Notes under the pieces: generated by a model
Database searches by the model: none
The model's input: the letters and a program-made list of their open reading frames with translations, nothing else
What the model was told of the DNA's origin: nothing
NCBI RefSeq assembly: GCF_056746865.1
Contig: NZ_JBWKMP010000002.1
Strand: one strand, 5' to 3'
DNA from: a plasmid
DNA length: 64,000 nt
Translations under genes and position numbers: made by a program
Shown here: one piece after another, positions 3,601 to 54,801 of the stretch
How positions within the stretch are numbered: position 1 is the stretch's first letter
How the letters are laid out: each line of letters starts with the position of its first letter

Positions 3601-3844
3601 CATTCTCGCCTGAATCCGCGTTCTTGTATTTCTCCACAATGTCCTGAGCACTGGTGGTTGCATTGCGATTTGCGTTAGGATTTGCAAGGTTAAAATTATT
3701 TTCGAGCTGGTCAAATATAGCGTCAGCAGCGTAAACACGTGGTGTCATTACCATGTTTATGAGTGTGACATAAAAAGCCCAACTCATAGTATTGGCAACC
3801 ATTGATGCAATAATCGCTGAGGTGATTGTTTTTCTAAGTTTCAC
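656..3844 (-). CDS. trhN: TraN-family mating-pair stabilisation outer-membrane protein (IncH TrhN type, long form)
   Basis: 1062 aa with an N-terminal signal/TM segment and a very Cys-rich C-terminal two thirds typical of TraN. It is last in the trhP-W-U-N order. The N-terminal ~250 aa is an N/S/G/K-rich extension. Confidence 0.85.
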   Translation of the reverse strand: MKLRKTITSAIIASMVANTMSWAFYVTLINMVMTPRVYAADAIFDQLENNFNLANPNANRNATTSAQDIVEKYKNADSGENVSGKITEKYVGKAESANLNLGKYGAGNSNESVMKNAASDGKSIGSAVQLPSMSGGTINSNYTKEGAKLLSRDANGNIGISSNPNTTPGTKTNTGEIFSSEQKHSDIKFNAADRYGDEDGFVNDIKNRKSQLFDAQSYDGVAYRTLVNANKDNPASSVKPNDPMFTAGRNEITNAVAGTGNWLQNCNVETSKKTITTHYPDYKEFYCNSPKQDNFSSCTITRDFSVPVYISGGNGDMSMCGDNCVRIWFGRRDDNYWSDGVFDNELTLKFHPDAKLASAKIVNAEWDDHMRVTLDGTQIFAHIDGAYRESDYPAPKGSWELKKSWKLDKVYDVTEKVRKSVYEEPDREVTMASRVWVGGGGEGYFEVELTFENMKLEDKHVQEPAGCYDAVQTPNTFCRFDRFKDMDVGTKRLPESVLSMAKPLYEGDKGFLTWKTNLEGYFCDPLAKDKICSYDASGKIMKDANGKDLCYNYEEIKSMPDACSSYKNDAACVLDKQTCAEGWFDEGTNSCYMYEQKYTCDRGKDVVREVESSTNACVGMIPCSGGTCETGPKEENNDFGKVAAYSNMVQYMQGEAKCEDPNDANSCSVFEGKPEWCGRSVGFVNGLAKTDCCEAPQGTAGALEGIMLAGSMIRNTNWTRVNAQLIKWTGGDTGTWASMSNAVGEWTASAGKTVGQMWNNVTSSLTSVYENVAGNLSRAVGSSATSGGAGGAGQLAQETMSSFGIGQLKQMAMKKAYELLPDTVRDFVFKNVATTGGEVVFSAAVQNFMLALNVIGWIYTAYQVTKMLLEMLVACDQKEMEASIHKNQKSCFTLDTERCVKYLNVGFTKKCVKKATDMCCYNSMLSRVIMQQAYPQLGIDPVASNCVGLSIKQIQQLDFDKIDLTEWINDAVQVGEVPDQYSKFSEESIVENLPFQNENYQLPSERTKEAMGGEENMIKARQENAQAIKEENVDCSYLPRPAICEVGSTTLDPVTGKQLPKY

Positions 3845-3862
3845 TTATTTTCTCCTTAGAAA

Positions 3863-4924
3863 TCAAACGCCTGGAACGTAGCGAACACAACAGTCATTGT
3901 AACGCCACAACATATAGACATAATTATCGTTGCCTATTTTTTTGCGCCCACCTTTAAGGGTTGACCAGTCGTGTACCGAATCACCAAGACGATGACAGCA
4001 ATCCGGTCCCTTCGCCTCAGGAGTAGGGAAAAGCATTGAAAGCCGATACTGGGAACGTGGTGTAAAGTATTCCCACGTTTTCTCACACATTGCGTCTGCT
4101 CCCATCGTTCGCATCAGCATGCCTTGGCGATGTAGTTTTGTCAGAAGACGCTGGGTAATCAGTGAACTCGTCCTTACAGCGTCATCATTTGCGTAAATGT
4201 GGCCGGTTAATGGGTAAAGGTTGCCATCGCATCCGGCACAAAAGTATGCAGCGAGATTATCCTTTCCTGCTGTTACTGCTACACAGTCAGCAGCGCACAC
4301 CATTGAGGCAATTGGGTTTGCAAAAACTACTGCCTCGGGATTCAGGACGAGTGTAAGCAGATCACTTTCCCACATAGGGTCCACTTCGCTTATATAGGTC
4401 AGGCTGGCATCTATATAGGGTTCAGCAGTGCACTCGCCAATAATCAGTAATTTGAGCATTGTCATGATTGGGAACTCCCAAAGATGAACATCGTAAAATC
4501 CGGCTTCAGTTGCTGTCATTGGCTGATTAGTGTTGCTTTTACCAATATCAAACTGCGATTTTTGAAGCATCGTGCCTTCAAGAAAGGGGCTGCACCAGGG
4601 GCTCTTTACAACTTCTACAATCTTCACCGGCTGAAAGAAGCTCAATTGCCAACCTATTTCCGGTACGCCGTTCTGATCTGTGCAGTAGCAACCCGGACGT
4701 GAAGGTGCAGCGCCTTCTGGAGCAGCCCCTATGCCCATTATCCTCATGGGAAAAATGCAGCTCCAACAGATATTCTTAATCAAGCCCTGCCACACTCCAG
4801 CTGACTGACACATAGCCCCAGGGACTCCAGCATCTGCTGCCATAGCCATACCAGGTATAGAAAGCGAAAGCATAACTGCTACAATGAACTCTAAAAGTAA
4901 CTTTTTGAATTTTTTCACCATCAT
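3863..4924 (-). CDS. trhU: TraU-family pilus assembly / DNA transfer protein
   Basis: Signal peptide MMVKKFKKLLLEFIVAVMLSLSIPGMAMA and conserved Cys pattern (ICWSCIFPMRIMG). It sits between the traW-like and traN-like genes. I start it at the internal ATG ATG (4924); the track ORF start at 5023 adds 33 unlikely residues. Confidence 0.85.
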   Translation of the reverse strand: MMVKKFKKLLLEFIVAVMLSLSIPGMAMAADAGVPGAMCQSAGVWQGLIKNICWSCIFPMRIMGIGAAPEGAAPSRPGCYCTDQNGVPEIGWQLSFFQPVKIVEVVKSPWCSPFLEGTMLQKSQFDIGKSNTNQPMTATEAGFYDVHLWEFPIMTMLKLLIIGECTAEPYIDASLTYISEVDPMWESDLLTLVLNPEAVVFANPIASMVCAADCVAVTAGKDNLAAYFCAGCDGNLYPLTGHIYANDDAVRTSSLITQRLLTKLHRQGMLMRTMGADAMCEKTWEYFTPRSQYRLSMLFPTPEAKGPDCCHRLGDSVHDWSTLKGGRKKIGNDNYVYMLWRYNDCCVRYVPGV

Positions 4925-18404: not shown

Positions 18405-19409
18405 TTATTCTGATACTTTTAATTTTTCTTTTATGAACTCCTCTAGCTCCTTAATAAAACCCGCACTTATCCTATTGAATTCAATGCGAATTTTTCTTCC
18501 AGTATTGTTTTTACTGATTCTTGCATACTTATCTTTGTTATCAAAAGTAATAAGATCACTTGTTTCCCATTTTGTGGAATAAGATTTTTCACAAACACTT
18601 TCCACAGATTGTGTGATTTTCTCCATTACAACTTTTTGGGCAACTTGGAAGATCTCCAATGTCTAAATCTTTTGTTTCCTCTTTAACATTATCTATTACT
18701 TCATCTAAAGGAAATAGATTTTTTTGCACATATTTCTGTAAACGAGACAAGCGACTATAATAGGAGTTCGGTATTCCTTCATAATCCGGGAATAAAGAGA
18801 TCAATGTTTCGTCAATACGTGCCGCCTGGATTCTTTTGGCTACCGATACATGACTAATCCCAAGATATGCTGCGAGTTCTTCATTAGTAGAAAATCCCTT
18901 TTCTTCCATTTTCTTGATAAATTGAAACCCAACTTCTCTATATGAAAATTTTCGAGATGTTTGTGCTGCGGATATAATTGAATTTATATCATCTTCGGTT
19001 AGTTCATCCGGTAGTACCCACAGGGGAGATCCTTTTCTGCCTTTATACAGCAGAAACGTCTGCGACTTCCTTCTATTAATAAATAAACCCCATCTCTTTT
19101 TACAGCGATCCCTTCGGTATCGACCCCTCTTTCTTCAATCTGCTTAAGAATATCTCTAACAGAATAATCTGTAAGGGCTTCTTGATTTCGTGGGTTTGCT
19201 GGATGGACTAAGGTCTCCTTCTCCACTCTCTGGGCTGGAACAATCACATGTTCCGCTTCAAGTCTTCGGCCCTTATGAAGAGTGAATAACTTTTTTATGC
19301 GAGGTGCTGTTTTCAAACCCGCAAGACCTGAACGGTGACCGACTTCTGTCCGCTTTGGTGCGTTTAAATATCGAGATTTATCATTCCCGATATGTTGCTC
19401 ATCGCTCAT
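18405..19409 (-). pseudogene. parB: Type Ia ParB (P1 ParB/SopB-like) centromere-binding protein, interrupted by two 1-nt frameshifts
   Basis: Three consecutive ORFs (18999..19409, 18589..18909, 18405..18659) together read as a ~335-aa ParB. The GSRRR motif is followed by a frame change at CCCC (~19030), and a second change lies at A5 (~18626). Confidence 0.7.
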
Positions 19410-20659
19410 GCGTTAACTCCTTGCTTAGCTGAAAAACTTTTTATTTCATTTATAAATTGTTGATATACCTGTAATACAGATTCTTCTGCGACATCAAGTT
19501 GCTTTGCGGAACAAAGTTCCTCTGATTTTTTGATATCAAGCACTGTACGCCCTTTGGAAGCAGCTGCCTTAAATGCTTCAGAATTTTTTATGTTAGCGGA
19601 CATCAAAAGGTCCTGAACAGTTCTGATTAATTTATCCAAAACTATTCTTTCATATGGACTTTTGTCATCAACATTGACAGCAAGAACTTTGAACCATTTT
19701 AAATTATCGCCCTTACTTGGTGATTGTTTAAACCTTTCACTTATTGTAAGCATGAAGTCTGTAGTAGAGGCGTAATCATATTCACGTGGTGACACTGCGA
19801 CAAGAATCCCATCGGCCGCTTCGTCAGCAGCCCAGATCAAAGGTGAATCTTCAGGTGGAGTGTCTATAATAATCAAATCATAGTTCTGCTTCAGTACCGG
19901 TAAGATAACTTCCTTGAAACGTAGTAACAAAGACGTTCGTTCTTCTCTAGAACATTGCCAGTATTTATCTTTAAAACGAGCATCTGTCGGAAATGCCGTT
20001 ATCACGTCCAAGTTTGGCAGATGCGTTGAAAAAGGCATATTAGTGATGATTTCTTCTTCAGAGAATCCTGAATCTAAATATTTTTTATACTCAGAATTTT
20101 CTTCATAAATTCCAAGGATTGCATCAATTGCTGTAAGGAAGACATCATCTTCTGAGACACTTTGAATCATGCTGCTTCCAATCGAACCTTGTGGGTCCCA
20201 TTCGATCATTAATACACGTGCATTCAGTTGTAGATCTAAAGCAGCTGCTACTGCTAAAGCTACAGATGTAGTGCTTTTCCCTGTACCGCCTTTATGATTC
20301 TGAGTAACAATAGCTCTGCTAAAGTAATGATCGCGGTACTTGGGATAACCCAGGGCATCCATTATTTTTTGAACATCCCAGCGGGTGTAAAGATGATTTT
20401 TGTTTTGATAAATAGGTGCACCAACAACTTCTTTTTCTTCTAAGTCCGAAAGTATTTTATTGAACGTTACTCGTGACTTCCCAAAAAAATCAGAGAGATT
20501 TTTTTTATTTAAACAGTGGTTGTAGATCAGTCTATCAACACCATCAACACTATCATCAGAAACAGATACTCTTGATGAAGCCATCAGAGATTCCTTAAGA
20601 GAAATCTGCTCGCTTTTCATGCGCTGACCAACGAGGGCGATCTTTTCAAGTAAATTCAT
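19406..20659 (-). CDS. parA: Type Ia ParA partition ATPase with N-terminal DNA-binding extension
   Basis: 417 aa with the deviant Walker A KGGTGKSTTS. It has a ~110-aa N-terminal extension as in P1 ParA/SopA and an ATGA overlap with parB. Confidence 0.85.
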   Translation of the reverse strand: MNLLEKIALVGQRMKSEQISLKESLMASSRVSVSDDSVDGVDRLIYNHCLNKKNLSDFFGKSRVTFNKILSDLEEKEVVGAPIYQNKNHLYTRWDVQKIMDALGYPKYRDHYFSRAIVTQNHKGGTGKSTTSVALAVAAALDLQLNARVLMIEWDPQGSIGSSMIQSVSEDDVFLTAIDAILGIYEENSEYKKYLDSGFSEEEIITNMPFSTHLPNLDVITAFPTDARFKDKYWQCSREERTSLLLRFKEVILPVLKQNYDLIIIDTPPEDSPLIWAADEAADGILVAVSPREYDYASTTDFMLTISERFKQSPSKGDNLKWFKVLAVNVDDKSPYERIVLDKLIRTVQDLLMSANIKNSEAFKAAASKGRTVLDIKKSEELCSAKQLDVAEESVLQVYQQFINEIKSFSAKQGVNA

Positions 20660-21054: not shown

Positions 21055-24047
21055 CCACTACGAATTATGGGAGCAAAGTTAGCGACCTAGCCCAGAACTG
21101 AAACCCAACTTCAGGAGGCAACCCCAGTGTGGCGATTGGAGTTAATCTGCCAGCGGCTGACAGTGTCCTGGCTCCTTTCTCCGTGGCCCACCACGCCCTG
21201 ATTAAAATCCCCTGCCCGGTATTGTATGGAGCGAAAAAAGCCCGTGCATTTGTGTCGGCAGACCGGCATGAAGGAATATGACGTTAATCTGTATCAGCAG
21301 GCACTTTTCGCATGATGGGAGCAAGTGATAGCAACCCCGCCCAGAACGGAAGGCCAGCATCAGGACAAAACCCAAGTTTGGCGATTAAGGGGGTTAAATT
21401 TGCAAGCGGATGACAGTGCCCCAGCTGCTGCTCAGTCACACCACGCCCTGAGTAAATCTCTCGCCAGGTCTTGTTATGACCGAAAATAGCCCAAGCACTG
21501 GTGTCGGCAGACCGGCATACAGGAATATGACGTTAATCTGTATCAGCAGATACATTTCGCATTATGGGAGCAAGAGATAGCAACCCAGCCCAGAACTGAA
21601 GGCCAGCATGAGGACAGAACACCAGTTTGGCGATTAAGGGAGTTAAATATGCAAGCTGCTGATAGTGCCCCAGCTCCTGCTCAGTAACACCACGCCCTGA
21701 TAAAATCTCCTGCCCGGTAATGTAATGACCGAAAAAAGGCCGTGCACTGGTGTCGGCAGACCGGCACGCAGGAAAATGACGTTAATCTGTATTAACAGAC
21801 ACATTTCGCATTAGGGGAGCAAGTGATAGCCACCCAGCCCAGAACTGAAGGCCAGCATCAGGACAGTACCCCAGTTTGGCGATTAAGGGGGTTAAATCCG
21901 CCAGTGGCTGTAAGTGCCCGAGCGGTGTATAAGAAATATTTCCCGAAGGACAATCTTTCGCTCGTACGATGAATAAAGTGTTCAACCCGGGAGCGGGGAT
22001 CACTTACCTGCTTAGCCTAAATCTTACGTCATTCTTAAACGGAGTTTAAGCTTAATGGTCCTTAGAAAGTTAAAAGGACTACCCATAATGACGTCTTGAG
22101 ATGGCGAATAAAGGGTTTTAATCTGCCAGCGGCTCAACAGTGCCCCAGCTTCTGCTCAGTCACACCACGCCTGATTAAATCTCCCGCCAGGTCTTATTAT
22201 GACCGAAAATAGTCCCCGTGCACTAGAGTCGTAAGACCGGCATACAGGAATGAAGCTTAAATCTTTATCAGGTTGCAAGGTTCGCATCATGGGAGCAAGG
22301 GCCTTGAACTGTAGGTTAACATCAGAAAATCCCAGATTGGCGATTAAGGGGGTTAAATCTGACAGCGACTGAAAGTGCCTTCAGATGCTGCTCAGGTATA
22401 TTACAACCTGAAAAAATCAAGCGTCTGTTCATGCGAATATCGAAAAAAGCTATGCACCAGTTTCGGCAGACCGGCATGGAGTAATGAGACGTTAATCTGT
22501 ATCAGCTGGCGCATTTCGTATCATGGGAGCAAGTGTTAGCAACCCTGCCCAGGACGGAAGGACACTATCAGGACTGATCCCAGTTTGGAGATTAAGGGGG
22601 TTAAATCTGCCAGTGGCTGACAGAGCCTTCTGAGTCAGACATACTATGAACGATAAAATCACCCGTCCGTCCTTGTGATTATCGGAAAAAGCCATGCCCA
22701 GTCGGCAGATCGGTATGCAGTAATGTGACTTTAATCTGTATCAGCAGGCGCAATGGGAGCAAGTGTTAGCAACCGAGCCCAGGACGGAAGGACACTATCA
22801 GGACTGAACCCCAGTGTGGCGATTAAGGGGGTTAAATCTGCAAGCGGATAACAGTGCCCCAGCTGCTGCTCAGTCACACCACGCCCTGATTAAATCTCTC
22901 GCCAGGTCTTGTTAGGACCGAAAATAGCCCGAGCACTGGTGTCGGCAGACCGGCATACAGGAATACGACGTTAATTTGTATCAGCAGGTACATTTCGCAT
23001 TATGGGAGCAAGTGATAGCAACCCAGCTCAGAACTGAAGGCCTGCATGAGGACAGAACACCAGTTTGGCGATTAAGGGGGTTAAATCTGACAGCGGCTGA
23101 CAGTGCCTTCAGATGCTGCTCAGGCATACTACTCTCCCTGATATAATCTCCCATATGTTCTTGAGATTCGCCCATGCACCGGTGTCGGCAGACCGGTATG
23201 CAGTAATGTGATTTTAATCTGTATCAGCAGGCACATTTCGTATCATGGGAGTAAGTGTTAGCAAACCGAACCCCGCCCAGCACGGAAGGTCAATATCAGA
23301 CCAGAATCCCAGTTTGGCGATTAAGGGGGTTAAATCTGCAAGCTGCTGACAGTGCCCCAGCTTCTGCTCAGTCACACCACGCCCTGATAAAATCTCCTGC
23401 CCGGTAATGTGATGACCGAAAAAAGCCCGTGCACTGGTGTTGGCAGACCGGCACGCAGGAATATGACGTTAATCTGTATCAGCAGTTACATTTCGCATTA
23501 TGGGAGGAAGTGATAGCCACCCAGCCCAGAACTGAAGGCCAGCATCAGGACAGTACCCCAGTTTGGCGATTAAGGGGGTTAAATCCGGCAGCGGCAGTAA
23601 GTGCCCGTGCTGTGTTAAAGGAATATTTCCCTAAGGACAATCTTCCGATCGGCCTTTTGTATAAAGTGGTCACCCCGGGAGCGGGGATCACTTTACCTGC
23701 TTAGCCTAAATCTTACGTCAATCACTATCCGGAATTTTAGCTTAATGGTCCTGAGCAAGTTAAAAGGGGTACCCCTAATGACGTCCCCAGATGGCGATAA
23801 AGGAGTTAATTCCGCCTTCGGCTTACAGTGCCGCAGCTGCTGCTAAGGAACACCACGCCCTGATTAAATCTCCCGCCTGGCCTTGTGATGACCAAAAATT
23901 GTCCGTGCACTGGCGTCGTAAGACCGGCATACAGGAATGAGGCGTTAATCTTTATTAGGTGGAAGGATTCGCATCATGGGAGCAAGGGCCCTAGAACTGT
24001 AGGCTAACATTAGAAAATCACAGATTGGCGATAAAGGGGGTTAAATA
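21055..24047. repeat. Non-coding tandem array: 13 units of ~249 bp arranged as a 1.69-kb higher-order repeat
   Basis: The core GGCGATTAAGGGGGTTAAATCTGC recurs at 21131, 21380, 21629, 21878, 22103, 22339, 22587, 22818, 23067, 23316, 23565, 23793 and 24027. Copy n and copy n+7 are 1687-1690 bp apart. No conserved ORF. Confidence 0.9.
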
Positions 24048-34503: not shown

Positions 34504-35090
34504 CATTCATCTAAATGCCTTTTACACCTCTGGGCGTGAGTGGGACTTTGTCTTGTCCATATGAACATCATTCATTCGAATGCTTTTGGCCAATGCTATT
34601 TAAGCAAATGCTTTCTGGCTGAGTCCTTTTGCGAATGAGTCTTTGATATAACTGCATGAATTTTGGGTTGTTTGGTGTACTAACAAAACAAAGGCATTTC
34701 TTTGAATGCCATTGGAGTTGTGATGCTTCTGATATTTTTTTGATCTCATATCAAACACATAGTCCTTCTGATGCCCAATGTCATAGATGTCTTGGACCAT
34801 TCTCGCTCTTAACAAAGCTGTACTGTGTGTCATTCGACCTAATGCCATTCACCAAAATGCCTTTTTATACCACTGCATAGCTATGCTCGGGATACAGTGG
34901 CAAACAAAAGCATTTCAATGAATGATTTTTTGGGATACCGACATCAAAAGCATTTGTATGAATGTAAGAGGCGTAATCCACAAAAGGCATTCACGTGAAT
35001 AGAGTGCGCACGAAACCATCTTGCTCCACGGCATTTAATGAATGGGCTAGCATGTACGCTTGAGCCAGAAAGGCATACAGATGAATAGTC
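34504..35090. repeat. Iteron field downstream of the first rep gene (~11 copies, both orientations)
   Basis: Consensus AAAAGGCATTTnnATGAATG or its complement CATTCATnnAAATGCCTTTT. Copies lie at ~34504, 34569, 34691, 34840, 34906, 34946, 34982, 35028 and 35068, among others. Confidence 0.75.
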
Positions 35091-35225
35091 AGGAGTTCGT
35101 TTGAAAAGTTACTTTTTTGCACATTAAGCCGAGATGTAAGACCAGTAGTAAAAGAAGCACTAAGCATAGCACTGATAAATAACTTATTTTTCAGCATGTT
35201 ATAACCAGTGCATACCTGGTAGCTT

Positions 35226-36101
35226 TCAACCTTGTTTGGCGAGGGCCAGCTTAGGGCTTCTTTTGAAGATCTGAAATTGTATGTCGCGACCTTTCTTAAC
35301 TTCTTGATAATCGAGATATCCGATAGATTCAAGTTCCCGCATTGCTTTACGAATTATCTGGTTTTGCGTACGAATAGGGGTTGTAAGAAGCAACCTTTCC
35401 CTCAACCGTTTCATATTAACGAACAACGTACCAGCTGGCATTGCTTCAAAATAAATATAGAGAGATTGCGCAGCTTCTTTTTTAGCCAAAATGTATAGAA
35501 CCTGAAGGCTTAACAATGTCTTATGGTCGTAACGATACAGTTCCCACATAGAAGGATCCCCAACCAACTCAACAGTATCGCTTTTTGGATCAATCATAGC
35601 CTTCTGCACCAGATGCGTTACTGTGAACCGACCACTCCGAGAGTCTGAGAAGGCAAGCACTACCGATGCAAGGTTCATTAATGACTCTTTAAAGCGCGCA
35701 CGAGTTCGTTTGTTGATGTTTGTTGAACTGATACCACACATCTTCGCAAACTCGTTAAAAGTCAGGGTAATCTTCTCGGAAGTAAAACCATATTTACTGA
35801 AAGCCATGATGATCCCGAGCCAGCACTTAAAGTCGGTAGACATAGATAGTTTGACACCAGTTATCTTGATGTCGTCATAACCCTCCGATCTTGCAATTTC
35901 CATACACGAAAGCTCATCAGAGGCATCAACTTCAAAGTTTCGGTCGCGGTTTTCTTTTGTGCCGACAGGGGTAAATACACTCAATCTCAACAGGGCCACG
36001 GGCTGAACCGACTTGGACGAGTTAGGCGTCAGTTGATAAGTCTTACCTGATTCATTACTGGTTACGTCAAAAGGATGGATTAACTCGTTGTTTTTAATCA
36101 T
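35226..36101 (-). CDS. repA: Iteron-binding replication initiator (RepA of a RepHI-type replicon)
   Basis: 291 aa flanked on both sides by iterons and next to a GATC/AT-rich region. It is clearly paralogous to the second Rep at 49297..50383 (LRLSVFTP / MRLGLFVP and WELYRYDHK / FELYQYDHK). Confidence 0.8.
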   Translation of the reverse strand: MIKNNELIHPFDVTSNESGKTYQLTPNSSKSVQPVALLRLSVFTPVGTKENRDRNFEVDASDELSCMEIARSEGYDDIKITGVKLSMSTDFKCWLGIIMAFSKYGFTSEKITLTFNEFAKMCGISSTNINKRTRARFKESLMNLASVVLAFSDSRSGRFTVTHLVQKAMIDPKSDTVELVGDPSMWELYRYDHKTLLSLQVLYILAKKEAAQSLYIYFEAMPAGTLFVNMKRLRERLLLTTPIRTQNQIIRKAMRELESIGYLDYQEVKKGRDIQFQIFKRSPKLALAKQG

Positions 36102-36154
36102 TAACTTAACTCGTCGGTGATAAGATTTTCATTTGGCAAACTGTTTATAACATA

Positions 36155-36262
36155 TTCTTGCAAATGCTTTTTACGCATTAACCTAAATGCCATAAGCATT
36201 CCAGTAAATGCCTTCCTTATTCATTCAAATGCTTTTCGCATGCATCCGAATGCCGGATCCTT
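36155..36262. repeat. Five direct iterons upstream of repA (origin core)
   Basis: (C/T)AAATGC(C/T)TTT cores at ~36161, 36186, 36207, 36228 and 36249 with ~21-22 bp spacing (two helical turns). Confidence 0.75.
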
Positions 36263-36577: not shown

Positions 36578-37633
36578 ATGAACAACAGCAAACATACAGT
36601 CATTGAAGTGGATACTAATCTAGTTGAAATTGAAAAGGGATTTAATCCCCGAGAGGCGGTAATCGGAGATTTGTGTTACGAACAAGAACCTGTCAAGTCG
36701 ATGATTGTGTCAATCAAACAAGCCTTTAAGGAAGGAAGGCAGGTTGATATGATCAAGGTCGTAAAAAGAAAAGGTAAATATTTAGTTCGTCAAGGTCATA
36801 CTCGTTTTCATGGCTTAAAATTAGCAATTTCTGAAGGTGCTAATATTCCAAAATTATCTGTTATCCTAATCGATTATAAAAACGAAATTGAAGAATACCT
36901 TGAGAACCTCGATGGTAACAGAAGCAATGGGCTAAATCCGGTTGGGCAAGCTCATGCATTAGCTCATGCTGTTAGTCTCGGGTATTCGGTTGAAGAACTA
37001 GCAATGCGATATCAACGATCAACTACCGCAATTCGTAATATGCTAAAAATCCTTGATATGCCATTAGAGCTTCAACGTTTGATTAGCCTAAATCTAATCA
37101 AAAAAACGCTCGCCATTGAAATAATGTTAAAATATTCCAACGATCACAAAATGGTTTTAAAACATATAGAAGGTTTCTTACCTGGCGTTAAGAATATTGA
37201 GACTACAACGAGCAAAATTGTAGGCATACCTGAACACAATGCAGCTGGAGCAGGACCAGACACCTTAAATAAAGGCGGACCAGAAAAGAAAAATTCGGCA
37301 GTCACTCGTAAGACTTTGGGTATTAAGCGCCTCTCGCATAAGAAAACAGAACGGCTAAAATCTGAATTTCTTGAGCTTGTGGAAAGTACACATACGGAAT
37401 CTATAACGAATACTCAAACAGAACTAAAATTTGGTAGAGATAGTGCACACTTGTTCAAAAATGTTAATAGTAATAATGTAATATTTTCCAATGATGGTGT
37501 TCAAATAATCTTGAATGATGAAAAGCTAAATATTTTATTGTCTTTACTTAACGACGAAAATACAGCAATCATTGTTTCTAAACCAAAATTAGAAGAGCTT
37601 CTGGAAATTCGAGATCTCCTTAAGGAATATTAA
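36578..37633 (+). CDS. ParB/KorB-like N-terminal-domain DNA-binding protein (not part of a parAB pair)
   Basis: 351 aa with AGGAGG upstream. It has the ParB-N-like signature GFNPRE ... KYLVRQGHTRFHGLKLA and is paralogous to 40844..42007. Confidence 0.6.
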   Translation: MNNSKHTVIEVDTNLVEIEKGFNPREAVIGDLCYEQEPVKSMIVSIKQAFKEGRQVDMIKVVKRKGKYLVRQGHTRFHGLKLAISEGANIPKLSVILIDYKNEIEEYLENLDGNRSNGLNPVGQAHALAHAVSLGYSVEELAMRYQRSTTAIRNMLKILDMPLELQRLISLNLIKKTLAIEIMLKYSNDHKMVLKHIEGFLPGVKNIETTTSKIVGIPEHNAAGAGPDTLNKGGPEKKNSAVTRKTLGIKRLSHKKTERLKSEFLELVESTHTESITNTQTELKFGRDSAHLFKNVNSNNVIFSNDGVQIILNDEKLNILLSLLNDENTAIIVSKPKLEELLEIRDLLKEY

Positions 37634-45732: not shown

Positions 45733-48189
45733 ATGCGTAAAACTCTAATTGGCTGCATGGTTGCAACTGCCCTTGCTACTGTATCTTCGGCACATGCTCA
45801 GGTATTTAGCTACTCATTTACAGATACCAATAAGGCTGTTCGGAATATCAAACCTGCAACACAAACATATCTTAATCCCGCTGGTGTTTTGACTCTGAAC
45901 TTGATATCGGGTCTTGATCGGTACGAGCGAGTGACGGTCACACGAGACAGCGATAAAAAGGTTATGTATTCCTCCGTCTCGACCAAAACGAGCGTTGCAG
46001 ATCGTATCGTTGCTGCCGATGGAACAGAATACTATGGAAAGGATATGGTTCTACCGGCGCTCGGAGAAGGGACCTTTACTGTAGTCAATGAAACTCTGGA
46101 TATTCGCCAGACTGTAGTGAGCACATCTACTTATCATTTCATCGTTGATACAACTCCTCCACGCTATAAGAGTATTTATCCGAGTCAAAACGCAGGTTAC
46201 GACATGGTACTTTCTGGGCCACTTTGGGAGTTGGGCCGAGGCGGTAGTGGCCAGTTTTCTATATTTGCAGACGGTATTGAGGATGCTAGTGGAATTGACA
46301 AGATCCGTCTTGTCATTAAACGAAGTAATGGTTCTGTGGTCTCCGACAATAACCTGAGTTATGACACAGCCAATAAACGTGCGTTCTATCCGTGGATTAA
46401 AGATATGAACACCCAGGCTGGCATGCCCTCAAGTGATCTTGATGAAGAATTCACCTTCAATTTCATCGTTACGGACCTGGCAGGAAATACGCTTAACATT
46501 CCTCCCCAGCGGTTTTTATATGACGATCAAATGGGAGAATTTACGCCATTTGCAGTTCATGACTCACGTGTAAGCACCAGTGTTGTACCCGGCATTTCTT
46601 CGGGATACGTCCCGTTTAAACGAGGCCTTACAGTGCTGGAAAACCCCTACAAGTTGGTTATACGTATCCCAAGAACTAACTGGAAGCCATATCGAAATGG
46701 TGGCATGAGCATTACCAATAACTATGGCGGAGTACAGGTCCTTTCCGAAGATGCCACCTATGTCTACGTGGAAGTTAAGCTGCCACAGGGTGCCTTAGAT
46801 GGAAACTACTATAGACCTGTGAATACATATCAATGGTCTGGAGGAGATCTTGGTCAGTATGCCAGCTGGCTCAACTGGGATCCTGCCTCTGTAAAGAGTC
46901 CGGCTTGGGGAAGTTCACCCATAGAACGACAAAAGGCTGATGGAACATGGTTCAACAGCGTAAACTGGAACCTGTTCAAGGCATCTGATATGCCTATAAA
47001 ACTTACTAATATCCGATTCAATGTACAGGCCAGGCCATATGATCAAAAAATCACTGGCGGAGCAACATGCAGTATTCCAGCTGGCTCAACAACCTGTACC
47101 GTCTCTTTGCCCCAGGATATTATAAATGGCACTACCGGTTATCTTCATAGTGGCTATGAAGTAAGGTCAACCACCGAAGCAACCTTCTTTGCCCCTATAT
47201 GGGAGAATATAGCCTGGCATACACTGGGTCCCTCCGTCACTGGATTTGATTACAATGAAACCACCAACATTCTCCAGGTTTACGTGAATCAACCTGGAGA
47301 TGGTTCATATTTCGACCATGTTTATGTAAATCGAGTTTGGTTGTCAGATAAAAACCGTAACAACGCAGAAATAAGCGTAACCGGCAAACAAACAGGTAGA
47401 AATATGGCGTCTGGGAACTACACGTATGAGTTCAACATGAAAGAGGTACCAGAAGGCAGTTATAACGTGGTGATTAATGCCCAAGATACATTCAACAATA
47501 CCGGTAACCTCCCTTATCAAACAGTTGTCGTTGATAATACAGCACCATCTGTAAGTATTAGCTACGAAGGAAAACCGATCAGCAAAAACGTAACAGTATA
47601 TGGGCTGGAGAACGTCCGTATACAGCTCACCGATGCTCTAACTAAACCATCCTTAAGCCGTATGACTCTTCGCGGTGGCCCTGTTTCTGATGCGGTGGAA
47701 TTGTCTTGGGTGAATCTGGGAAACAACCTGTATGCACCTAATTATCCCAAGATCTTTCCGTCTCTTAATGAAGGCGAAACATACACTCTCACAGTTCAGG
47801 CCAAAGATGAGATGAACAACGTTAAAGAAAGCTCAGTCGAATTTAACTACCTTCCAAACAATCTCGTCAGGCTAGAGAATCTGAAAACCTTAGCTGTCAA
47901 TGCTTCTCTCAAAACATCTGACAATACTGCTCTGGCTGTTCTGTATGCCAGCCAGCTGCGTAAAAAGGATGGTTCAATCGCTACAGGGCTTCAGGACGCA
48001 GTGCTTACTGTCCGTAAGGACGCTGCATTCGGCGTGACTGTAAATGGCGTTTCTGCGATGCCAGGTGAAAGCAAAGAGCTTCAACTGGATTTGGGGCTCG
48101 GGGACAGCCGTAGCTTTCCTATTTTCCCTGCTGTATCCGGCCTTACTGGCAGATCTGAGTTCATGATTAACATTGAAGAATTAAAATAA
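45733..48189 (+). CDS. Secreted ~810-aa beta-rich (Ig-like/adhesin-like) protein, paralog A
   Basis: 818 aa with signal peptide ...LATVSSAHA. Conserved N-terminal (F-DTN, LISGLDRY, LPALGEG, VDTTPP) and C-terminal (YLPNNLV-LENLKTLAV ... TVRKDAAFG) blocks are shared with paralogs B and C. Confidence 0.7.
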   Translation: MRKTLIGCMVATALATVSSAHAQVFSYSFTDTNKAVRNIKPATQTYLNPAGVLTLNLISGLDRYERVTVTRDSDKKVMYSSVSTKTSVADRIVAADGTEYYGKDMVLPALGEGTFTVVNETLDIRQTVVSTSTYHFIVDTTPPRYKSIYPSQNAGYDMVLSGPLWELGRGGSGQFSIFADGIEDASGIDKIRLVIKRSNGSVVSDNNLSYDTANKRAFYPWIKDMNTQAGMPSSDLDEEFTFNFIVTDLAGNTLNIPPQRFLYDDQMGEFTPFAVHDSRVSTSVVPGISSGYVPFKRGLTVLENPYKLVIRIPRTNWKPYRNGGMSITNNYGGVQVLSEDATYVYVEVKLPQGALDGNYYRPVNTYQWSGGDLGQYASWLNWDPASVKSPAWGSSPIERQKADGTWFNSVNWNLFKASDMPIKLTNIRFNVQARPYDQKITGGATCSIPAGSTTCTVSLPQDIINGTTGYLHSGYEVRSTTEATFFAPIWENIAWHTLGPSVTGFDYNETTNILQVYVNQPGDGSYFDHVYVNRVWLSDKNRNNAEISVTGKQTGRNMASGNYTYEFNMKEVPEGSYNVVINAQDTFNNTGNLPYQTVVVDNTAPSVSISYEGKPISKNVTVYGLENVRIQLTDALTKPSLSRMTLRGGPVSDAVELSWVNLGNNLYAPNYPKIFPSLNEGETYTLTVQAKDEMNNVKESSVEFNYLPNNLVRLENLKTLAVNASLKTSDNTALAVLYASQLRKKDGSIATGLQDAVLTVRKDAAFGVTVNGVSAMPGESKELQLDLGLGDSRSFPIFPAVSGLTGRSEFMINIEELK

Positions 48190-48554
48190 AGCAGGGCTGT
48201 TTTGCTGAAGCACAACGGCCGCCTTCTGATGCGCCGTAGCCCATGTTGTTGCAAATCAGTCCGACGTTCATTGCGTAAGTAACGCTTACTGCGGACCATG
48301 GTAGTGATTAGACTCACTACCATGGTCATTTCACCACATATCTTCTCTGCATTGCTCTTGTTGGGCAGACTAGTAACTCGTCACTAAATTGCAGCTTTTG
48401 TCTTGCTAAGTCGCTGGTATAACTGCACTACGAAATCGTCAAAAGATTTTATCCCTCATGTAGATCCAATAAATGATCCCAAAGGTGCCAGAGAGTACAA
48501 AGAAGATCCCGGTACGCTGTAGGCCGCATGGTTACTGGGCTGGAGCATTGTCAC

Positions 48555-49078
48555 TGACAACAGTAGCGACATAAGTGACAACGGGAGTGACTTAAAAGAC
48601 AATGGTAGAGACTATTTCGACGTTGGTAATGATTTTAAGTGACAATGGTAGTGAGGTTAGACTTAAACTTCCACTGTGAGGTAAGGTGACTCGCATTATT
48701 TAAATAAATCATTACTTTCAATTACTTGCGACACGAGTCTGCATGTATGCTTCTATTTCTCAAAAATTTATCCACCGAAAATGCCTGTGGCTGTGATTTA
48801 GCTTTGACGACAGTTTTTATCAGGGAGGCAAGTTGAGACCTGTATAAGAACTAAGCATTTATTTATCCCCATTTTCCACAAGGTAGTTCCAATAATTAGT
48901 ACCTTAGTGTTCCTGATAGATCAAAAGAGATCCCCGCTGCCTCCAGGCCAGACGGCACAAGGCCTGAGACGTGATCAGTGACAACAGTAGTGATTATTTT
49001 GACATTAGTAGTGATTATTATAACGTTGGTAATGAGTTTTTTGACATCAGTAGTGATCAGAGCGACAATAGTAGTGAC
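48555..49078. repeat. Origin region of the second replicon: two clusters of five direct iterons flanking DnaA-box-like sites
   Basis: Iterons (G)TGACAAyrGTAGTGA at 48555-48656 and 48978-49078 with 21-22 bp spacing. DnaA-box-like sites are TTATCCACC (48768), TTATCCCCA (48863) and TTTTCCACA (48872). Confidence 0.75.
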
Positions 49079-49087
49079 TTTTCATTA

Positions 49088-49225
49088 GATCTTTTTAACT
49101 TGATCTGATCCGTTGTTGATAAGAGTTGCAGGTCATTGTATGCAAAGAGTTTTTGCCAAGTTTTAATGAGTGGAGTCGTTTTTTTAGGTAGAACTTATGC
49201 ACAGATATGGATCATCACAATGATC
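49088..49225. promoter_or_regulatory. GATC-rich AT-rich segment next to the iterons (putative DUE / Dam-SeqA target)
   Basis: GATC at 49088, 49102, 49107, 49210 and 49222. It lies immediately between the iterons and the rep start. Confidence 0.5.
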
Positions 49226-49296: not shown

Positions 49297-50383
49297 ATGA
49301 CTAAAGAGAAAGATACTGAGCAGCAGGACCTGGTCACCAGGGCTTTCTCTGTTAGAGAGAAAGAATCAGGTAAAGACATCATTTTGCGTCCTAACAGCAA
49401 CCGTACGGTGCAGTCTATTGCTTTGATGCGGCTCGGGCTGTTCGTCCCATCACCAAAGAGTGTGGGGCGTCAAAATCGGGAATATAAAACGGTTGGCTTT
49501 GACGCAACGAAAGAGTTACAGACGCTCTCTTTAATGGAGAGCGAGGGGTTCACCAATATTTCAATTGTCGGTGAGCGTCTTAATATGTCAGTAGATTTTA
49601 AGACGTGGATGGGCATCATTCGAACCTATGCCAATCATCCGATTAACAATGACACGATAAGCTTAAAATTCACTGAATTCCTCAAGCTATGTACGCCTGA
49701 AAATTATCGCTCATCTACAGCGTCCAGAAAACGTATAGACGCCTCCTTACGCAGGTTAGCATCCGTTACCTTGTCGTTCACCAGTAATAACTCGTCCAGT
49801 CTATACAACGCATCTGGTACAGTCTGCCCTGTTAGACCCGGAATCAGATCAGGTTGTCCTTCAGGTTGATCCTAAGATTTTCGAGCTCTATCAATACGAT
49901 CATAAGGTTTTGATGCAGCTGAAGGCAATTAAGGAGTTGGCCAAGAAGGAAAGCGCCCAGGCTCTCTATACGTTCATAGAGTCATTACCGCCAAATCCTA
50001 TACCGATATCCCTTACTCGGCTGAAAAATCGTCTGAACCTCAAAACACGAGCAAATAGTCAGAATGCTACCGTGAGAAAGGCTCTTGAAGAGTTGGCATC
50101 GATAGGATACCTCAAGTACACCGAAATTAAGAAAGACGGAAAAGTATACTTCCAGATTCATAAGCGGGATCCCGATCTGAATTTGAACAATACTCAGCCT
50201 CCTTTAGAAGTGGTTGAAGATGAAGAAGAGAACTCAGGGTCTTCTGTTTTAGAAGGTGAGTTATGCCCACCAGCTGACCCGATTGACGGCGATGATGTTC
50301 TTACCGTCCATGATTTAACCGCTGAAGAACTGCGCTATATTCGTAGTCTTCGAAGCCAGAAAAAGAACAGCAACGCCAGCTAA
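49297..50383 (+). pseudogene. repA: Second iteron-type replication initiator, split by one frameshift
   Basis: ORFs 49297..49869 and 49910..50383 are the N- and C-terminal halves of a Rep paralog. Reading +1 from ~49795 gives [38 protein letters not shown], collinear with Rep1. Confidence 0.7.
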
Positions 50384-50454: not shown

Positions 50455-52230
50455 TCACGTCAACGGTAATGAGTCAAAAGTCATTACCGTTGTCATTGTT
50501 CTCTACCACCCTATGTAGATCGAGATTGCGAAATTCAACGCTTTCTCCTGAGTCACCTGTTAACACCCGGTTTCTACGCTTTACTTCATTGGCCAGTACA
50601 TCCAACGGAAAATATCGTAACGGGGTGACAATGGCAGTGAGTTGACCCACTCACTACCATCGACATTCAAATCCCGGCTTCTCTGGTAGCTATAGTGACA
50701 ATGGTAATGATGTGTACCTTACTGGCATTGTCATTGTCCTCCGAGTGTGCGTTCAGCTTTGGGAGGACACCGGAACTTAATGCGGCGAGTCACGGCCATT
50801 GTGAATCTCGATTGGATTGGCGAATACGGCTTCCGGTTGGGCCAGATGTCAATGGTTATGCTTCATCCAGCTCATTACTGTAGTCATTGCCGTTCAGTTG
50901 AGCTGATGCTCCTCTCATTCTATATGGCGACAACGGTAGTGAGCCCAGAAAGTGACTACCGTTGTCATGGCCGTCCAGTAGAGCGGGTCAACCTCTTAAC
51001 TCACAGGGTGACAACGGTATTGAGCCCAGAAAGTCACTACCGTTGTCATGGCCGTCTGGTTAAGCAGATCATCCTCTCAATTCACAGGGTGACAATGGTA
51101 GTGAGCCTATTAAGTCATTACCGTTGTCATTGCCATCCAGAAGAGCGGATGATCCTCTCAATTCATACGGCGACAATGGCAGTGAGCCCAGCAAGTCACT
51201 TCCGTTGTCATAGCCTTCCAGAAGAGCAGATGAGCCTCTTAATTAACAGGGTGACAACGGTAGTGAGCTCATTAAGTCATTACCATTGTCATGGACGTAC
51301 AGCTGAGCTGCTCATCCTCTCAATTCACACACCGACAATGGTAGTGAGCTATTAAAGTCACTACCATTGTCATATACGTCCAGTTAAGTGGACCATCCTC
51401 TCAATACACACGGTGACAACGGTAGTGAGCCATTAGAATCACTACCGTTGTCATTGCTTTTCAGGTGCACTGATAAGGCTCTCAATAGACACGACGACAA
51501 TGGCAGTGAGCAATTAGAGTCACTACCGTTGTCATTGCTTTCAGCTGAGCTGATAAGGTACGTCATTTACACGATGACAATGGCAGTGAGCCAATCGAGT
51601 CACTACCGTTGTTAATGCCGACCAACCGAGGGAAGGGTCCGCTCAAAGAACTGAGTGACAACAGTAGTGAGATCATCCAATCACTACCATTGTCAGCTTA
51701 AACCTGTAGGACGAAGAGGCTTGTCCGATAAAATGACGACAATGGAAATGAGCCTATCCATCACTACCACTGTCATTAAAGTCCAGCGGTTCAACGTTAA
51801 TCAGTAGCTCCGGATGACAATGGTTGTGAGTCAGGCAATTCCCAAGCATTAGGTGACAGCAGCGTAACACCTCTAAGCTCACTTCTGTTGTCAGGGGTTA
51901 GGGTATTGAGTCTCTACCGTCGTCAGTGTTTCTGAGACACCAGTATTGCAGATCACTACAATTGTCACTTAAATATCGACGGGGGAGTAGATGCAAGTGA
52001 CTGGCTAACCAGTACCAGTTTAGATTCAAAACGATCCCATCTTTGTGGATGCGCTTGAGTAAGCTCGTATGACGATATGTCAGAGAAGTGACAACAGGTG
52101 TGAGTTGCCGGACTCACTCCCGTTGTCATCCCCGGTTGAAGGAAGAGAATCCCCGGGGCTGTATATTTACCAGGTATCCTTACTCAAGGGGTTCGACACT
52201 CACTCCCATTGTCGTAATCAACGAGTATGC
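50455..52230. repeat. Array of ~20 palindromic iteron pairs with an 81-bp phase
   Basis: The unit is GTGACAAyGGTAGTGAG-N7-9-(G)TCACTACCGTTGTCAT plus a conserved spacer. The GACAAyGG core sits at 50929, 51010, 51091, 51172, 51253, 51334, 51415, 51496, 51576, 51657, 51738 and 51816. Degenerate copies lie on both sides. Confidence 0.85.
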
Positions 52231-52380: not shown

Positions 52381-54801
52381 TTACTTCAACTCGTCGATCT
52401 GAATCATGAATTCTGAGGTGCCAACTTTCCCATTTTCGGAAGGATAAACGGGTAACAGAAGATTATCCCCCTGGCCCATATCTATTTGCACCTCAACTGA
52501 CTCGCCTGGAGCCGCCTGTGCCCCATTAAATTTAATACCGAAGGCTGCATCCTTCCGCACAGTCAGCGTTGCGTTCTGGACCCCTTTAGCAATTTCTCCA
52601 TTTGTCTTACGCAGAACGTTAGTGGACAGGTACGCAAGTGGTACGCCATCTGTCGTTTTGAGAGGTGAACTGACCGACAATGTGCGTAGATTATGTAACT
52701 GCACAAGGTTATTCGGTAGATAACTGAACTTCTGAGTATAGGTTTTGGTATTCGACTGACTATCGGCAACTGTTACGCTAATTGAATAATTTTCAGATGG
52801 TTCGAAATTTGGGAACAGCCTCGGATACTCAGGCATGTATGTATCTTTGCCTGCCGGTGACCACGTAAGCTCAACGTTATCAGCTGTGGGGCCACCTACG
52901 AGCTGAAGACGGGTTATCCTCGGGGTTGTCAGATTATCTGCCAGAGCGATCCTGAGGTTCTCCAGGCCGTACACTACCGTATCGTCTTTTACCGGCTTTC
53001 CGTCGAATGTTATGGCCACTGTCGGAGGAGTGTTATCCAGAGCAATTTCTCCGAAAGTTTTATTGGTCTGGTTCTGGAAGAAGTCCCTGATGTTGACCTC
53101 AACGTTGTATTTTCCTTCAGACTGACGGGATAAATCATAAGCAATCGTGTAGTTACCTGAGATACGAGATTTGATTACGCCTGTTGGTGACATCCGGGTA
53201 CCGGTGTTCTTATCGGAAAGATAAAATTCCCTCAATGAGACCGAGTCGAACCAGTTACCATCGCCTTCAAGTGACGCCAGTACATCCAGCTGCTTGTTAG
53301 TCTCGTCATATGATATCGAGTTTATTACCGGCAGTTGTTTATTGTTCCAGCGTGTCATAATCCATTGCTCAGACCGCAAAATGGGATTGCTGATGCTGCG
53401 AACGAAGTAAAGGATTCTATTGTAGCCCTGGGTACCCAAGGCCATATCAAACGTCTCAGGCGCTTCACACGAGGTTTTTCCTGCCGGAATGGTGCAGGTC
53501 GCCTTACCGCCGATCTCCTGTGCAAAGGGCCGGGCTTCAACGTTAAAACGAAGTCGGGAAATTTTAATTGGCAGTCGTGATGAAGCCACACTCTCAAAAT
53601 CCTTCCACTTAACCCAGTTCCCCTTATCATCGAGGAAATCTACCCAGGTACCCGCAAATGCAGGCGTTTGGTTTGCAGATGGGTTTAGAACGAGGCTGTA
53701 TGACGGATAATACCCTCCCCACTGGCCAAAGTTCGCCATACGAGCCATATCCCCATTAATTGAGCCATAGGGAAGAGTCATTTCAACATAAGCATAAGTG
53801 CTGTCTACAGCTATCTCTTTGGGGGCGGAATATTGATTGATGAACTGAAGCCCACCTTCTGAATAAGCACGGTAGTTAGATTTTGGGATCCGGTAGACTA
53901 ATCGAATAGGGTTTTCGTTAACGACCATACCGGCTTTGTAAGCCGGATAATTAGAAACCCCGGGTACGACGCTGGAAGACGTATTTGGATCATGAACGGC
54001 CCACAGTGTCATCTCACCCAGCGTGTTGTCGTAGCGAAATTTTTGAGTTGGCAGCGTTCGGCTATTACCTGCGTTATCGAAGATAACAACTTTTGCAGTA
54101 AAGTCTTCATCCAGGTTGCTGTCTGGTATTCCGGTTCCCTTAACTGAATTCTTAGAGTAAGTGTGGTACATCTTTTGGCCGGATACGTCATACTGCATCT
54201 GTGTAGTGCTGTAGAGGCTACCGTCCTGCCTGTAAATATATATTAGGCCCTTATCAATACCATTTGCATCACTTACGCCCGAAGAGGTGAAGTCATACTG
54301 CCCCGTTGCCTCTAATCCAAGCTTCCACACGTCACCAGCGGTAGAGCCAGAACCAGTATTAGCGGTAAGAGCATTTGCCGCTGGAGGGGTGACATCAATT
54401 AGCCAGTTATAGTTATAGGTCGCTACAGGCTTCTGATTGAGATCTAACACGTTTATCTGAACGACAAATTTGCCTTCACCCAAAGCAGGCAAAGTTACTT
54501 TTTTGCCGTAGAACTCACTACCGTCAGCAGCTGTTAGTCGGTCTGATACACCCGTCCGTGTAGTCGTAGTATTAAGAATGACAGTTCCAGTGTCTTTCGT
54601 GACTTTGACATTAACGAAACGATCAAGACCTGAAATAAGTGTCAAAGTTACCGGTGATGCCGGATTAAGCATAAGACGAGAAGACGGGGCGTGGATCTCA
54701 ATACCGTTCGTGTCCTTAAAGGCCGATTCATATATCTGAGCTGGGGCCTGAACAGACATACCGAGTCCGGCTACAGCAGTAATAAAAGCGAGATGTTTCA
54801 T
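52381..54801 (-). CDS. Secreted ~810-aa beta-rich (Ig-like/adhesin-like) protein, paralog B
   Basis: 806 aa with signal peptide ...GMSVQAPA and AGGGGA upstream. It is collinear with paralogs A and C and ends in the same ...EFMIQIDELK tail as paralog A. Confidence 0.7.
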   Translation of the reverse strand: MKHLAFITAVAGLGMSVQAPAQIYESAFKDTNGIEIHAPSSRLMLNPASPVTLTLISGLDRFVNVKVTKDTGTVILNTTTTRTGVSDRLTAADGSEFYGKKVTLPALGEGKFVVQINVLDLNQKPVATYNYNWLIDVTPPAANALTANTGSGSTAGDVWKLGLEATGQYDFTSSGVSDANGIDKGLIYIYRQDGSLYSTTQMQYDVSGQKMYHTYSKNSVKGTGIPDSNLDEDFTAKVVIFDNAGNSRTLPTQKFRYDNTLGEMTLWAVHDPNTSSSVVPGVSNYPAYKAGMVVNENPIRLVYRIPKSNYRAYSEGGLQFINQYSAPKEIAVDSTYAYVEMTLPYGSINGDMARMANFGQWGGYYPSYSLVLNPSANQTPAFAGTWVDFLDDKGNWVKWKDFESVASSRLPIKISRLRFNVEARPFAQEIGGKATCTIPAGKTSCEAPETFDMALGTQGYNRILYFVRSISNPILRSEQWIMTRWNNKQLPVINSISYDETNKQLDVLASLEGDGNWFDSVSLREFYLSDKNTGTRMSPTGVIKSRISGNYTIAYDLSRQSEGKYNVEVNIRDFFQNQTNKTFGEIALDNTPPTVAITFDGKPVKDDTVVYGLENLRIALADNLTTPRITRLQLVGGPTADNVELTWSPAGKDTYMPEYPRLFPNFEPSENYSISVTVADSQSNTKTYTQKFSYLPNNLVQLHNLRTLSVSSPLKTTDGVPLAYLSTNVLRKTNGEIAKGVQNATLTVRKDAAFGIKFNGAQAAPGESVEVQIDMGQGDNLLLPVYPSENGKVGTSEFMIQIDELK

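Follow-up and report, generated by a model that had tools for sequence, protein, structure and literature searches.

Why should a plasmid replicon carry, beyond its initiator gene and away from its origin, a 1.8-kb array of inverted copies of the iterons found at that origin? The question is raised by a 64,000-nt stretch of a plasmid (contig NZ_JBWKMP010000002.1 of RefSeq assembly GCF_056746865.1; hereafter the window), in which such an array follows the gene of the replication initiator RepHI2. An earlier note on this DNA had described the array as a sink for Rep dimers or a handcuffing and incompatibility locus, locked to an 81-bp phase. Our analysis identifies it, from its sequence and setting, as the already published "80–81 bp iteron" region of the plasmid R478 and other IncHI2 plasmids, which is routinely used as a PCR (polymerase chain reaction) typing target. 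In the RepHI2 replicon, it probably binds Rep and serves as a locus of control, handcuffing and incompatibility, where we infer both the binding and the phenotype by analogy with homologous replicons.

Candidate Rep sites were located with a position weight matrix that was built solely from the ten origin iterons (48554–48655 and 48978–49078) and used to scan both strands of the 64 kb. The origin iterons themselves score 15.2–23.7 bits with this matrix. A further 38 sites reach at least 14.5 bits (14.5–23.7), all of them within 50457–52215, in addition to a single pair at 48292 (+) and 48313 (−), while all other positions of the window stay at or below 12.1 bits. At a threshold of 10 bits, 54 sites were observed compared with about 12 in shuffled sequence. 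The sites make up approximately 22 units, namely 14 intact pairs (11 regular ones and those at 50457, 50625 and 52088) and about eight half or decayed units, which agrees with the count of about 20 units of the 17-bp origin iteron in the earlier note. The additional palindromic pair that it had placed beyond the other side of the replicon (48296–48328) was also recovered. The respective features are:

48292 to 48329: isolated convergent pair upstream of the origin, arm offset 21 bp, gap 4 nt (matrix scores 15.3 and 18.7 bits)
50457 to 50887: left decayed part of the array with pairs 50457/50480 and 50625/50650 and single arms at 50695, 50789 and 50871 (matrix scan)
50927 to 51776: regular core of 11 convergent full-length iteron pairs, arm offset 25 bp, 81-bp period (matrix scan and Tandem Repeats Finder)
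51814 to 52215: right decayed part of the array with single arms at 51814, 51878, 51910, 51952 and 52199 and pair 52088/52113 (matrix scan)

The '+' arms at 50927, 51008, 51089, 51170, 51251, 51332, 51413, 51494, 51574, 51655, 51736 and 51814 are spaced by 81 bp seven times, followed by 80, 81, 81 and 78 bp, exactly the series of twelve cores reported before. A '−' arm lies 24–25 bp 3' of every '+' arm from 50927 to 51736, and the arm at 51814 is unpaired. Tandem Repeats Finder returned a period of 81 with 9.2 copies, 77% matches and 0% indels. Within a unit, two 17-bp arms of opposite orientation enclose a gap of 8 nt and are followed by a spacer of 39 nt. In the 11 regular units, the information content per column is highest in the two arms (1.66 and 1.71 bits), whereas gap and spacer reach 1.03 and 0.93 bits, respectively. 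The 17-mer is conserved at both ends (positions 3–17) in both arms, which are therefore complete iterons. The units are mutually 70–85% identical. The similarity between spacers depends on their position. It amounts to 72–79% for neighbouring units in the left-central part and drops to 21–38% in most comparisons with right-hand units, where the arms remain good. The conservation of the spacer, claimed earlier for the whole array, thus applies to the left-central units and fades towards the right while the arms persist. Such a distribution is that of an old tandem array whose spacers drift while its arms are maintained. Local alignment detected no decayed third iteron in the spacer, with at most four matching bases.

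Which plasmid does the array belong to? Hundreds of IncHI2 plasmids, found in Escherichia, Salmonella and Enterobacter among other hosts, contain the surrounding 4.2 kb with 100% identity, and in them the gene beside the array is annotated as "IncHI-type plasmid replication initiator protein RepHI2". The window is thus assigned by sequence identity to an IncHI2 plasmid. The R478 locus (NC_005211) aligns with the window from end to end, with 49 substitutions over approximately 2 kb, one 1-nt indel and one 81-nt unit. The array sits between repHI2 and the same gene for a protein with immunoglobulin-like (Ig-like) domains in both plasmids, the iteron arms are the same, and a matrix scan of R478 revealed 12 regular pairs at the place where the window has 11. 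The passage on R478 in PMC8490738 describes twelve iterons of 80–81 bp beside repHI2, citing Gilmour 2004 and Page 2001, and states with reference to Page et al. 2001 that cloning experiments suggested these repeats to be active. The review PMC4980987 refers to unusually long iterons in R478, again citing Page et al. In addition, the array contains a primer site:

50542 to 50566, + strand: exact match of primer HI2_F, inside the array

This primer belongs to the HI2 pair of PCR-based replicon typing, for which the primer table of PMC3936901 lists "iterons" as the target and a product of 644 bp. Because 12 regular pairs occupy this place in R478, an account of its iterons has been published and the HI2 primers lie inside the array, we identify the array as this known locus. 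Its earlier publication and its routine use as the HI2 typing target had been missed by the earlier note. A literature search on IncHI2 81-bp repeats, RepHI1B iterons and IncHI2 curing by incompatibility yielded nothing on the function of this array.

Primer HI2_R consists of the left arm plus flanking sequence. It matches R478 exactly, where the two primers lie 647 bp apart, and its best sites in the window have two mismatches. The R478 unit with the exact match (4629–4650 of locus L009) is absent from the lineage of the window, in which the candidates have at least two mismatches (compared over 50924–51431). The HI2 products predicted for the window are 485, 566, 728 or 890 bp long, compared with the expected size of approximately 644 bp. 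Changes by whole 81-bp units explain the variable size of typing amplicons.

Is the array itself an origin? The elements expected of an origin were found upstream of the initiator gene:

48554 to 48655, + strand: distal origin iterons, five direct copies, spacing 21–22 bp
48656 to 48977: inter-iteron region with an AT-rich stretch and DnaA-box-like sites, looks like the origin core
48978 to 49078, + strand: proximal origin iterons, five direct copies, overlapping the best promoter-like site
49297 to 50383, + strand: repHI2 initiator gene, here split into open reading frames (ORFs) 49297–49869 and 49910–50383

The inter-iteron region holds a perfect DnaA box, TTTTCCACA, at 48872–48880 as well as boxes with one mismatch at 48768 and 48863, and its AT content reaches 75% around 48690. 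A second perfect DnaA box of the origin region is located at 49195. The promoter scan placed the best promoter-like site (10/12 matches) at 49041–49069, inside the proximal direct iterons. The promoter likewise lies within direct origin iterons in P1-type autoregulation. The array, in contrast, is not origin-like: it starts 74 bp after the rep stop codon, has an AT content of 52.7% compared with 60.3% in the origin region, and contains no DnaA-box-like site with one mismatch or less.

What the array probably does is suggested by its relatives. Its sites are the same in sequence as the origin iterons and lie beyond rep on the far side from the origin. RepHI2 is approximately 50–56% identical to RepFIB-type initiators and 43% identical to Rep1, the second initiator encoded in the window (35226–36101), and all relatives examined combine origin iterons upstream of rep with a second cluster downstream. 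The sister replicon of the Citrobacter plasmid p26019-2 (L007; Rep 86% identical) has 5+5 origin iterons and approximately 32 downstream sites. An Enterobacter IncFIB replicon (L008; Rep 55% identical) uses a different iteron sequence throughout, with 5+6 sites at the origin and 15 downstream; the latter form two opposed blocks with a period of about 40 bp (40–41). The FIB replicon of E. coli (L010) has five sites upstream and six downstream, and the Rep1 replicon of the window has four upstream and approximately 11 downstream in both orientations, again with a sequence of their own. The sequence of the downstream sites therefore covaries with that of the origin sites, which would be expected of two sets bound by the same Rep. 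No cross-match of the Rep1 iterons to the RepHI2 matrix was found in the window, in line with the earlier statement that the two differ in sequence. Relative to the origin, the array is larger than in relatives, which supports the earlier remark on its size, with a downstream-to-origin ratio of 38:10 as opposed to 6:5–6 for E. coli FIB, 15:11 for Enterobacter IncFIB and about 11:4 for Rep1.

Experiments on homologous or similar replicons point in the same direction. The FIB replicon is displaced by its downstream block EFGHIJ alone but not by its upstream block, and a model in which both sets are handcuffed to each other has been proposed (PMC11983097). In a Klebsiella virulence plasmid, zero, one or two copies of the downstream iteron region were associated with copy numbers of 3.0, 2.43 and 1.33, respectively (PMC9602619). 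By analogy with P1 incA, F incC and the EFGHIJ repeats of RepFIB, the array of the RepHI2 replicon would form a non-origin bank of approximately 38 full-length candidate sites for RepHI2. Rep bound to the array could pair with Rep on the origin iterons of the same or a sister plasmid, and such handcuffing would shut off initiation with rising copy number, while the array might also soak up Rep. Because it would act on any plasmid with the same origin iterons, the array may represent the main incompatibility determinant of the replicon. The core of the earlier proposal, a Rep sink or a handcuffing and incompatibility locus, is thus supported in that the repeats copy the replicon's own origin iterons and lie downstream of rep like the controlling iterons of homologous replicons.

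The same cannot be said of the strict 81-bp phase, which had been taken to imply a higher-order nucleoprotein structure. Among IncHI2 plasmids, the distance from rep to the following gene varies by −81, +81 or +162 bp, corresponding to 10, 11, 12 or 13 units, and R478-type records show +80, that is, one unit net of the 1-nt indel. Loci L003–L005 were compared through their annotation tables only. Scans of the regular core identified 12 pairs in R478, 13 in p24359-1 and 12 in pMTY18780-1. The comparison of related plasmids that had been proposed earlier reveals lengths that differ only by whole units between IncHI2 plasmids, and such changes are exactly what unequal crossing-over produces. The 81-bp period accordingly reads as the footprint of tandem duplication of one unit, a convergent pair plus its spacer, and not as a functional phase. 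If the phase were functional, the regular pairs might build an ordered filament or a wrapped structure. Seven consecutive 81-bp spacings without an indel in units of such limited identity would fit this possibility, as would the retention of whole units in every length variant and an average of one site per 40.5 bp, which resembles the 40–41 bp period of the IncFIB downstream array. However, in the sister lineage, with its closely related Rep and the same iterons, convergent pairs persist at offsets of 24–26 bp, but the intervals between them are 57, 145, 145, 142 bp and so on. In the window, the array is irregular at its flanks as well, and 81 bp correspond to 7.71 helical turns and 25 bp to 2.38, compared with 2.0 turns from one origin iteron to the next. 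The region has few small indels in any case (one 1-nt indel versus 49 substitutions between the window and R478), and variation by whole units is expected from unequal crossing-over. Taken together, these observations make a functional phase improbable. A higher-order repeat of 243 bp, at which the Tandem Repeats Finder scores hinted, was rejected since unit identity merely decays with distance.

Insertions were also found at this locus. In several conjugative IncHI2 plasmids, the insertion sequence ISKpn18, IS1203 or IS2 lies within the array or next to it. In the plasmid checked, pMTY18780-1 (2535–3883 of locus L011), ISKpn18 is located in the degenerate right tail, and repHI2 and the 12 regular pairs are intact. 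In the Salmonella Cubana plasmid NC_021845.1 (L005), a mercury-resistance transposon abuts the array; in the stretch covered, it has taken the place of repHI2 and the array's left part, and the right two-thirds remain without an adjacent rep gene.

Several points weigh against a function in replication control. First, repHI2 is frameshifted in the window. Second, RepHI2 itself gave no usable match in comparisons with Pfam, NCBIfam and the sequences of solved structures, so that its domain layout rests on the 43% identity to Rep1; the first and second winged-helix domains of this paralogue score above the cut-offs of Pfam Rep3_N and Rep3_C, respectively, of the Rep_3 family. Third, the arms show no visible deficit of substitutions relative to R478: rightward from 51100, where arms account for about one third of the sequence, they hold seven of 21, although the number of sites is small. 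At this short distance, the arms carry no signal of purifying selection. Finally, the model does not account for the arrangement in convergent pairs at a fixed offset of 25 bp, which neither the FIB nor the Rep1 array shares.

The frameshift is caused by a 2-bp deletion near 49797 (CCAAAGT to CCAGT) that is shared by none of 1125 plasmid records carrying the segment. It is thus either a private mutation or an assembly error. If the frameshift is real, the array would be left without a cognate Rep made in cis and could act only on Rep from another, incoming IncHI2 plasmid. The plasmid would then depend on Rep1, which is plausible because evolved IncHI2 plasmids persist after the loss of approximately 165 kb including repHI2 (PMC9599605). 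Both the frameshift and the maintenance of these reduced plasmids would also suit a largely neutral, satellite-like expansion that survives here as a relic, with repHI2 broken and Rep1 in charge of replication. A drift of the unit number between 10 and 13 and the insertion sequences in the array tail of several conjugative IncHI2 plasmids could be read in the same way. On the other hand, conservation of the arms far exceeds that of the spacers and extends to units with decayed spacers, the sister lineage has kept its approximately 32 sites, the frameshift occurs in none of the 1125 other records and may stem from the assembly, and the insertion checked sits in the degenerate tail and spares the core. 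We therefore have little confidence in a neutral origin of the array.

Does the inverted arrangement of the sites point to another binding mode? The earlier note had viewed the arms as inverted half-sites that are bound by Rep dimers in the manner of autorepression operators. This part of its proposal was not supported, given that the arms are full-length 17-bp iterons located more than 1 kb downstream of the promoter region. A Rep-dimer autorepression operator was consequently rejected, because the arms are conserved across positions 3–17 and the array lies downstream of rep and not over the promoter. Both lineages of RepHI2 type have conserved the convergent pairs, which the FIB and Rep1 arrays lack. 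Since the pair survives in both lineages although period and spacing differ, we tentatively consider that the working unit could be the convergent pair of full-length iterons at an offset of about 25 bp instead of the single iteron, perhaps with a distinct binding mode, although this seems rather doubtful at present. Two Rep molecules could sit head to head on such a pair, for example, or a Rep dimer could span its two complete iterons. If true, the approximately four-fold excess of control sites would behave unlike the direct-repeat arrays of P1, F and FIB. The isolated pair at 48292–48329 is kept at the same relative position in pSTM6-275, pQC11_1, p24359-1 and R478, and both of its arms have the derived GACCATGG in common. 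The isolated pairs 48292–48329 and 50457–50496 share derived bases in both arms (GACCATGG, and GGTAATGA), in which the regular units differ.

Inverted symmetry could equally serve a nucleic acid structure, and the long reading frame a protein. According to this explanation, the units would act as hairpins or cruciforms, as structured or terminating RNA, or as the coding sequence of a real repeat protein:

50747 to 51355, + strand: ORF of 202 aa, one stop-free frame of the 81-bp unit, not a gene

Each unit is indeed a 42-bp imperfect palindrome, positions 50461–50492 resemble a terminator 78 bp after the rep stop codon, the derived bases of the two isolated pairs occur in both arms, and a hypothetical protein is annotated here in some records. 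However, arm mismatches are as frequent within a unit as between units (1.64 versus 1.60; permutation P = 0.63; 11 regular units), that is, no compensatory change was detected. Rfam gave just a chance-level match to a microRNA family (E = 0.8), and terminator-like sites are no commoner than in shuffled sequences. With respect to the ORF, the earlier note was right that an array of this period mimics a repeat protein: differences between units at codon positions 1, 2 and 3 number 44, 86 and 34, with the fewest at position 3, which is the opposite of coding sequence, and the sole Pfam match remains below the cut-off (22.5 versus 27 bits), so that no Pfam family is assigned. A structural, RNA or protein function is thus highly improbable.

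A role of the array in segregation or plasmid pairing, as a centromere-like element or a tether, has to be considered as well. In having numerous tandem, palindromic initiator sites next to a smaller cluster at the origin, the locus resembles oriP of Epstein-Barr virus. In oriP, a family of repeats lies next to the dyad-symmetry element of the origin. In the window, by contrast, no partition genes adjoin the array, whose neighbours are repHI2 and Ig-like genes. The ParA-like gene (19406–20659) is 30 kb away and has a 249-bp repeat array of its own, and the arms are Rep iterons with no separate motif. The partition systems of IncHI2 plasmids have been described as parAB and parMR (PMC5955447). 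Of all readings we regard this one as the least probable, with hardly any chance of being correct.

The preferred reading of the array as a control locus of RepHI2 is accompanied by some further features of the window. The 249-bp array (21064–24040; period approximately 249 bp, at least ten copies, 68% matches) is unrelated to the RepHI2 iterons. It lies upstream of the ParA-family ATPase gene on the minus strand, which encodes 417 aa, and may be a partition or incompatibility site. The Rep1 replicon extends from 34504 to 36237. It comprises rep1 on the minus strand, four iterons (CATTCAnnnAAATGCyTTT) upstream of it at 36153–36236 and the downstream copies at 34504–35087, which are irregularly spaced; a ParB-like gene (36578–37633) is located nearby. 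Two convergent Ig-like genes, at 45733–48189 (+) and 52381–54801 (−), bracket the whole RepHI2 replicon. Both encode DUF4165, Big_3_2 and Big_3_3 domains, and they are paralogous, with 41% identity over their full length. Proteins of this Ig-like class have been reported to be needed for IncHI conjugation (PMC6764697).

As biology, the array adds little, being a large example of a well-known control design. Only the convergent pairing of full iterons at approximately 25 bp retains some novelty. In practical terms, the array might be the natural cassette with which to cure IncHI2 plasmids, major carriers of mcr and extended-spectrum β-lactamase resistance genes, through incompatibility; for FIB, this use of the downstream iterons has been shown.

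How does the array compare with known systems? In P1 incA and F incC, extra iterons beyond rep are dispensable for initiation, lower the copy number and cause incompatibility by titration and handcuffing. With nine and five sites, respectively, these loci are far smaller than the array with its approximately 38 sites, a comparison made by description only. The same control-iteron logic is echoed for incC of FIA in PMC11983097. Closer in descent is the EFGHIJ block of RepFIB (F, P307 and pO157), whose Rep is homologous (approximately 52%), whose iterons flank rep and whose downstream block matches the origin iterons. In contrast to the array, it has six irregularly spaced sites mostly in one orientation, without convergent 25-bp pairs or an 81-bp unit. 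The 'iteron-1 region' of Klebsiella pneumoniae (PMC9602619) is likewise a tandem array at the 3' end of rep (repA) that grows by duplication and whose dose is inverse to copy number. Judged by its description, it differs from the array in its make-up, with ten direct repeats of 34 nt within 413 bp and no inverted pairs. The Rep-dimer operators of RepE of F, pi of R6K and RepA of pPS10 share with the array an inverted symmetry derived from the iteron sequence. These operators are partial iterons that occur once, over the rep promoter. The array of the RepHI2 replicon, in contrast, consists of full 17-mers downstream of rep at about 20 sites.

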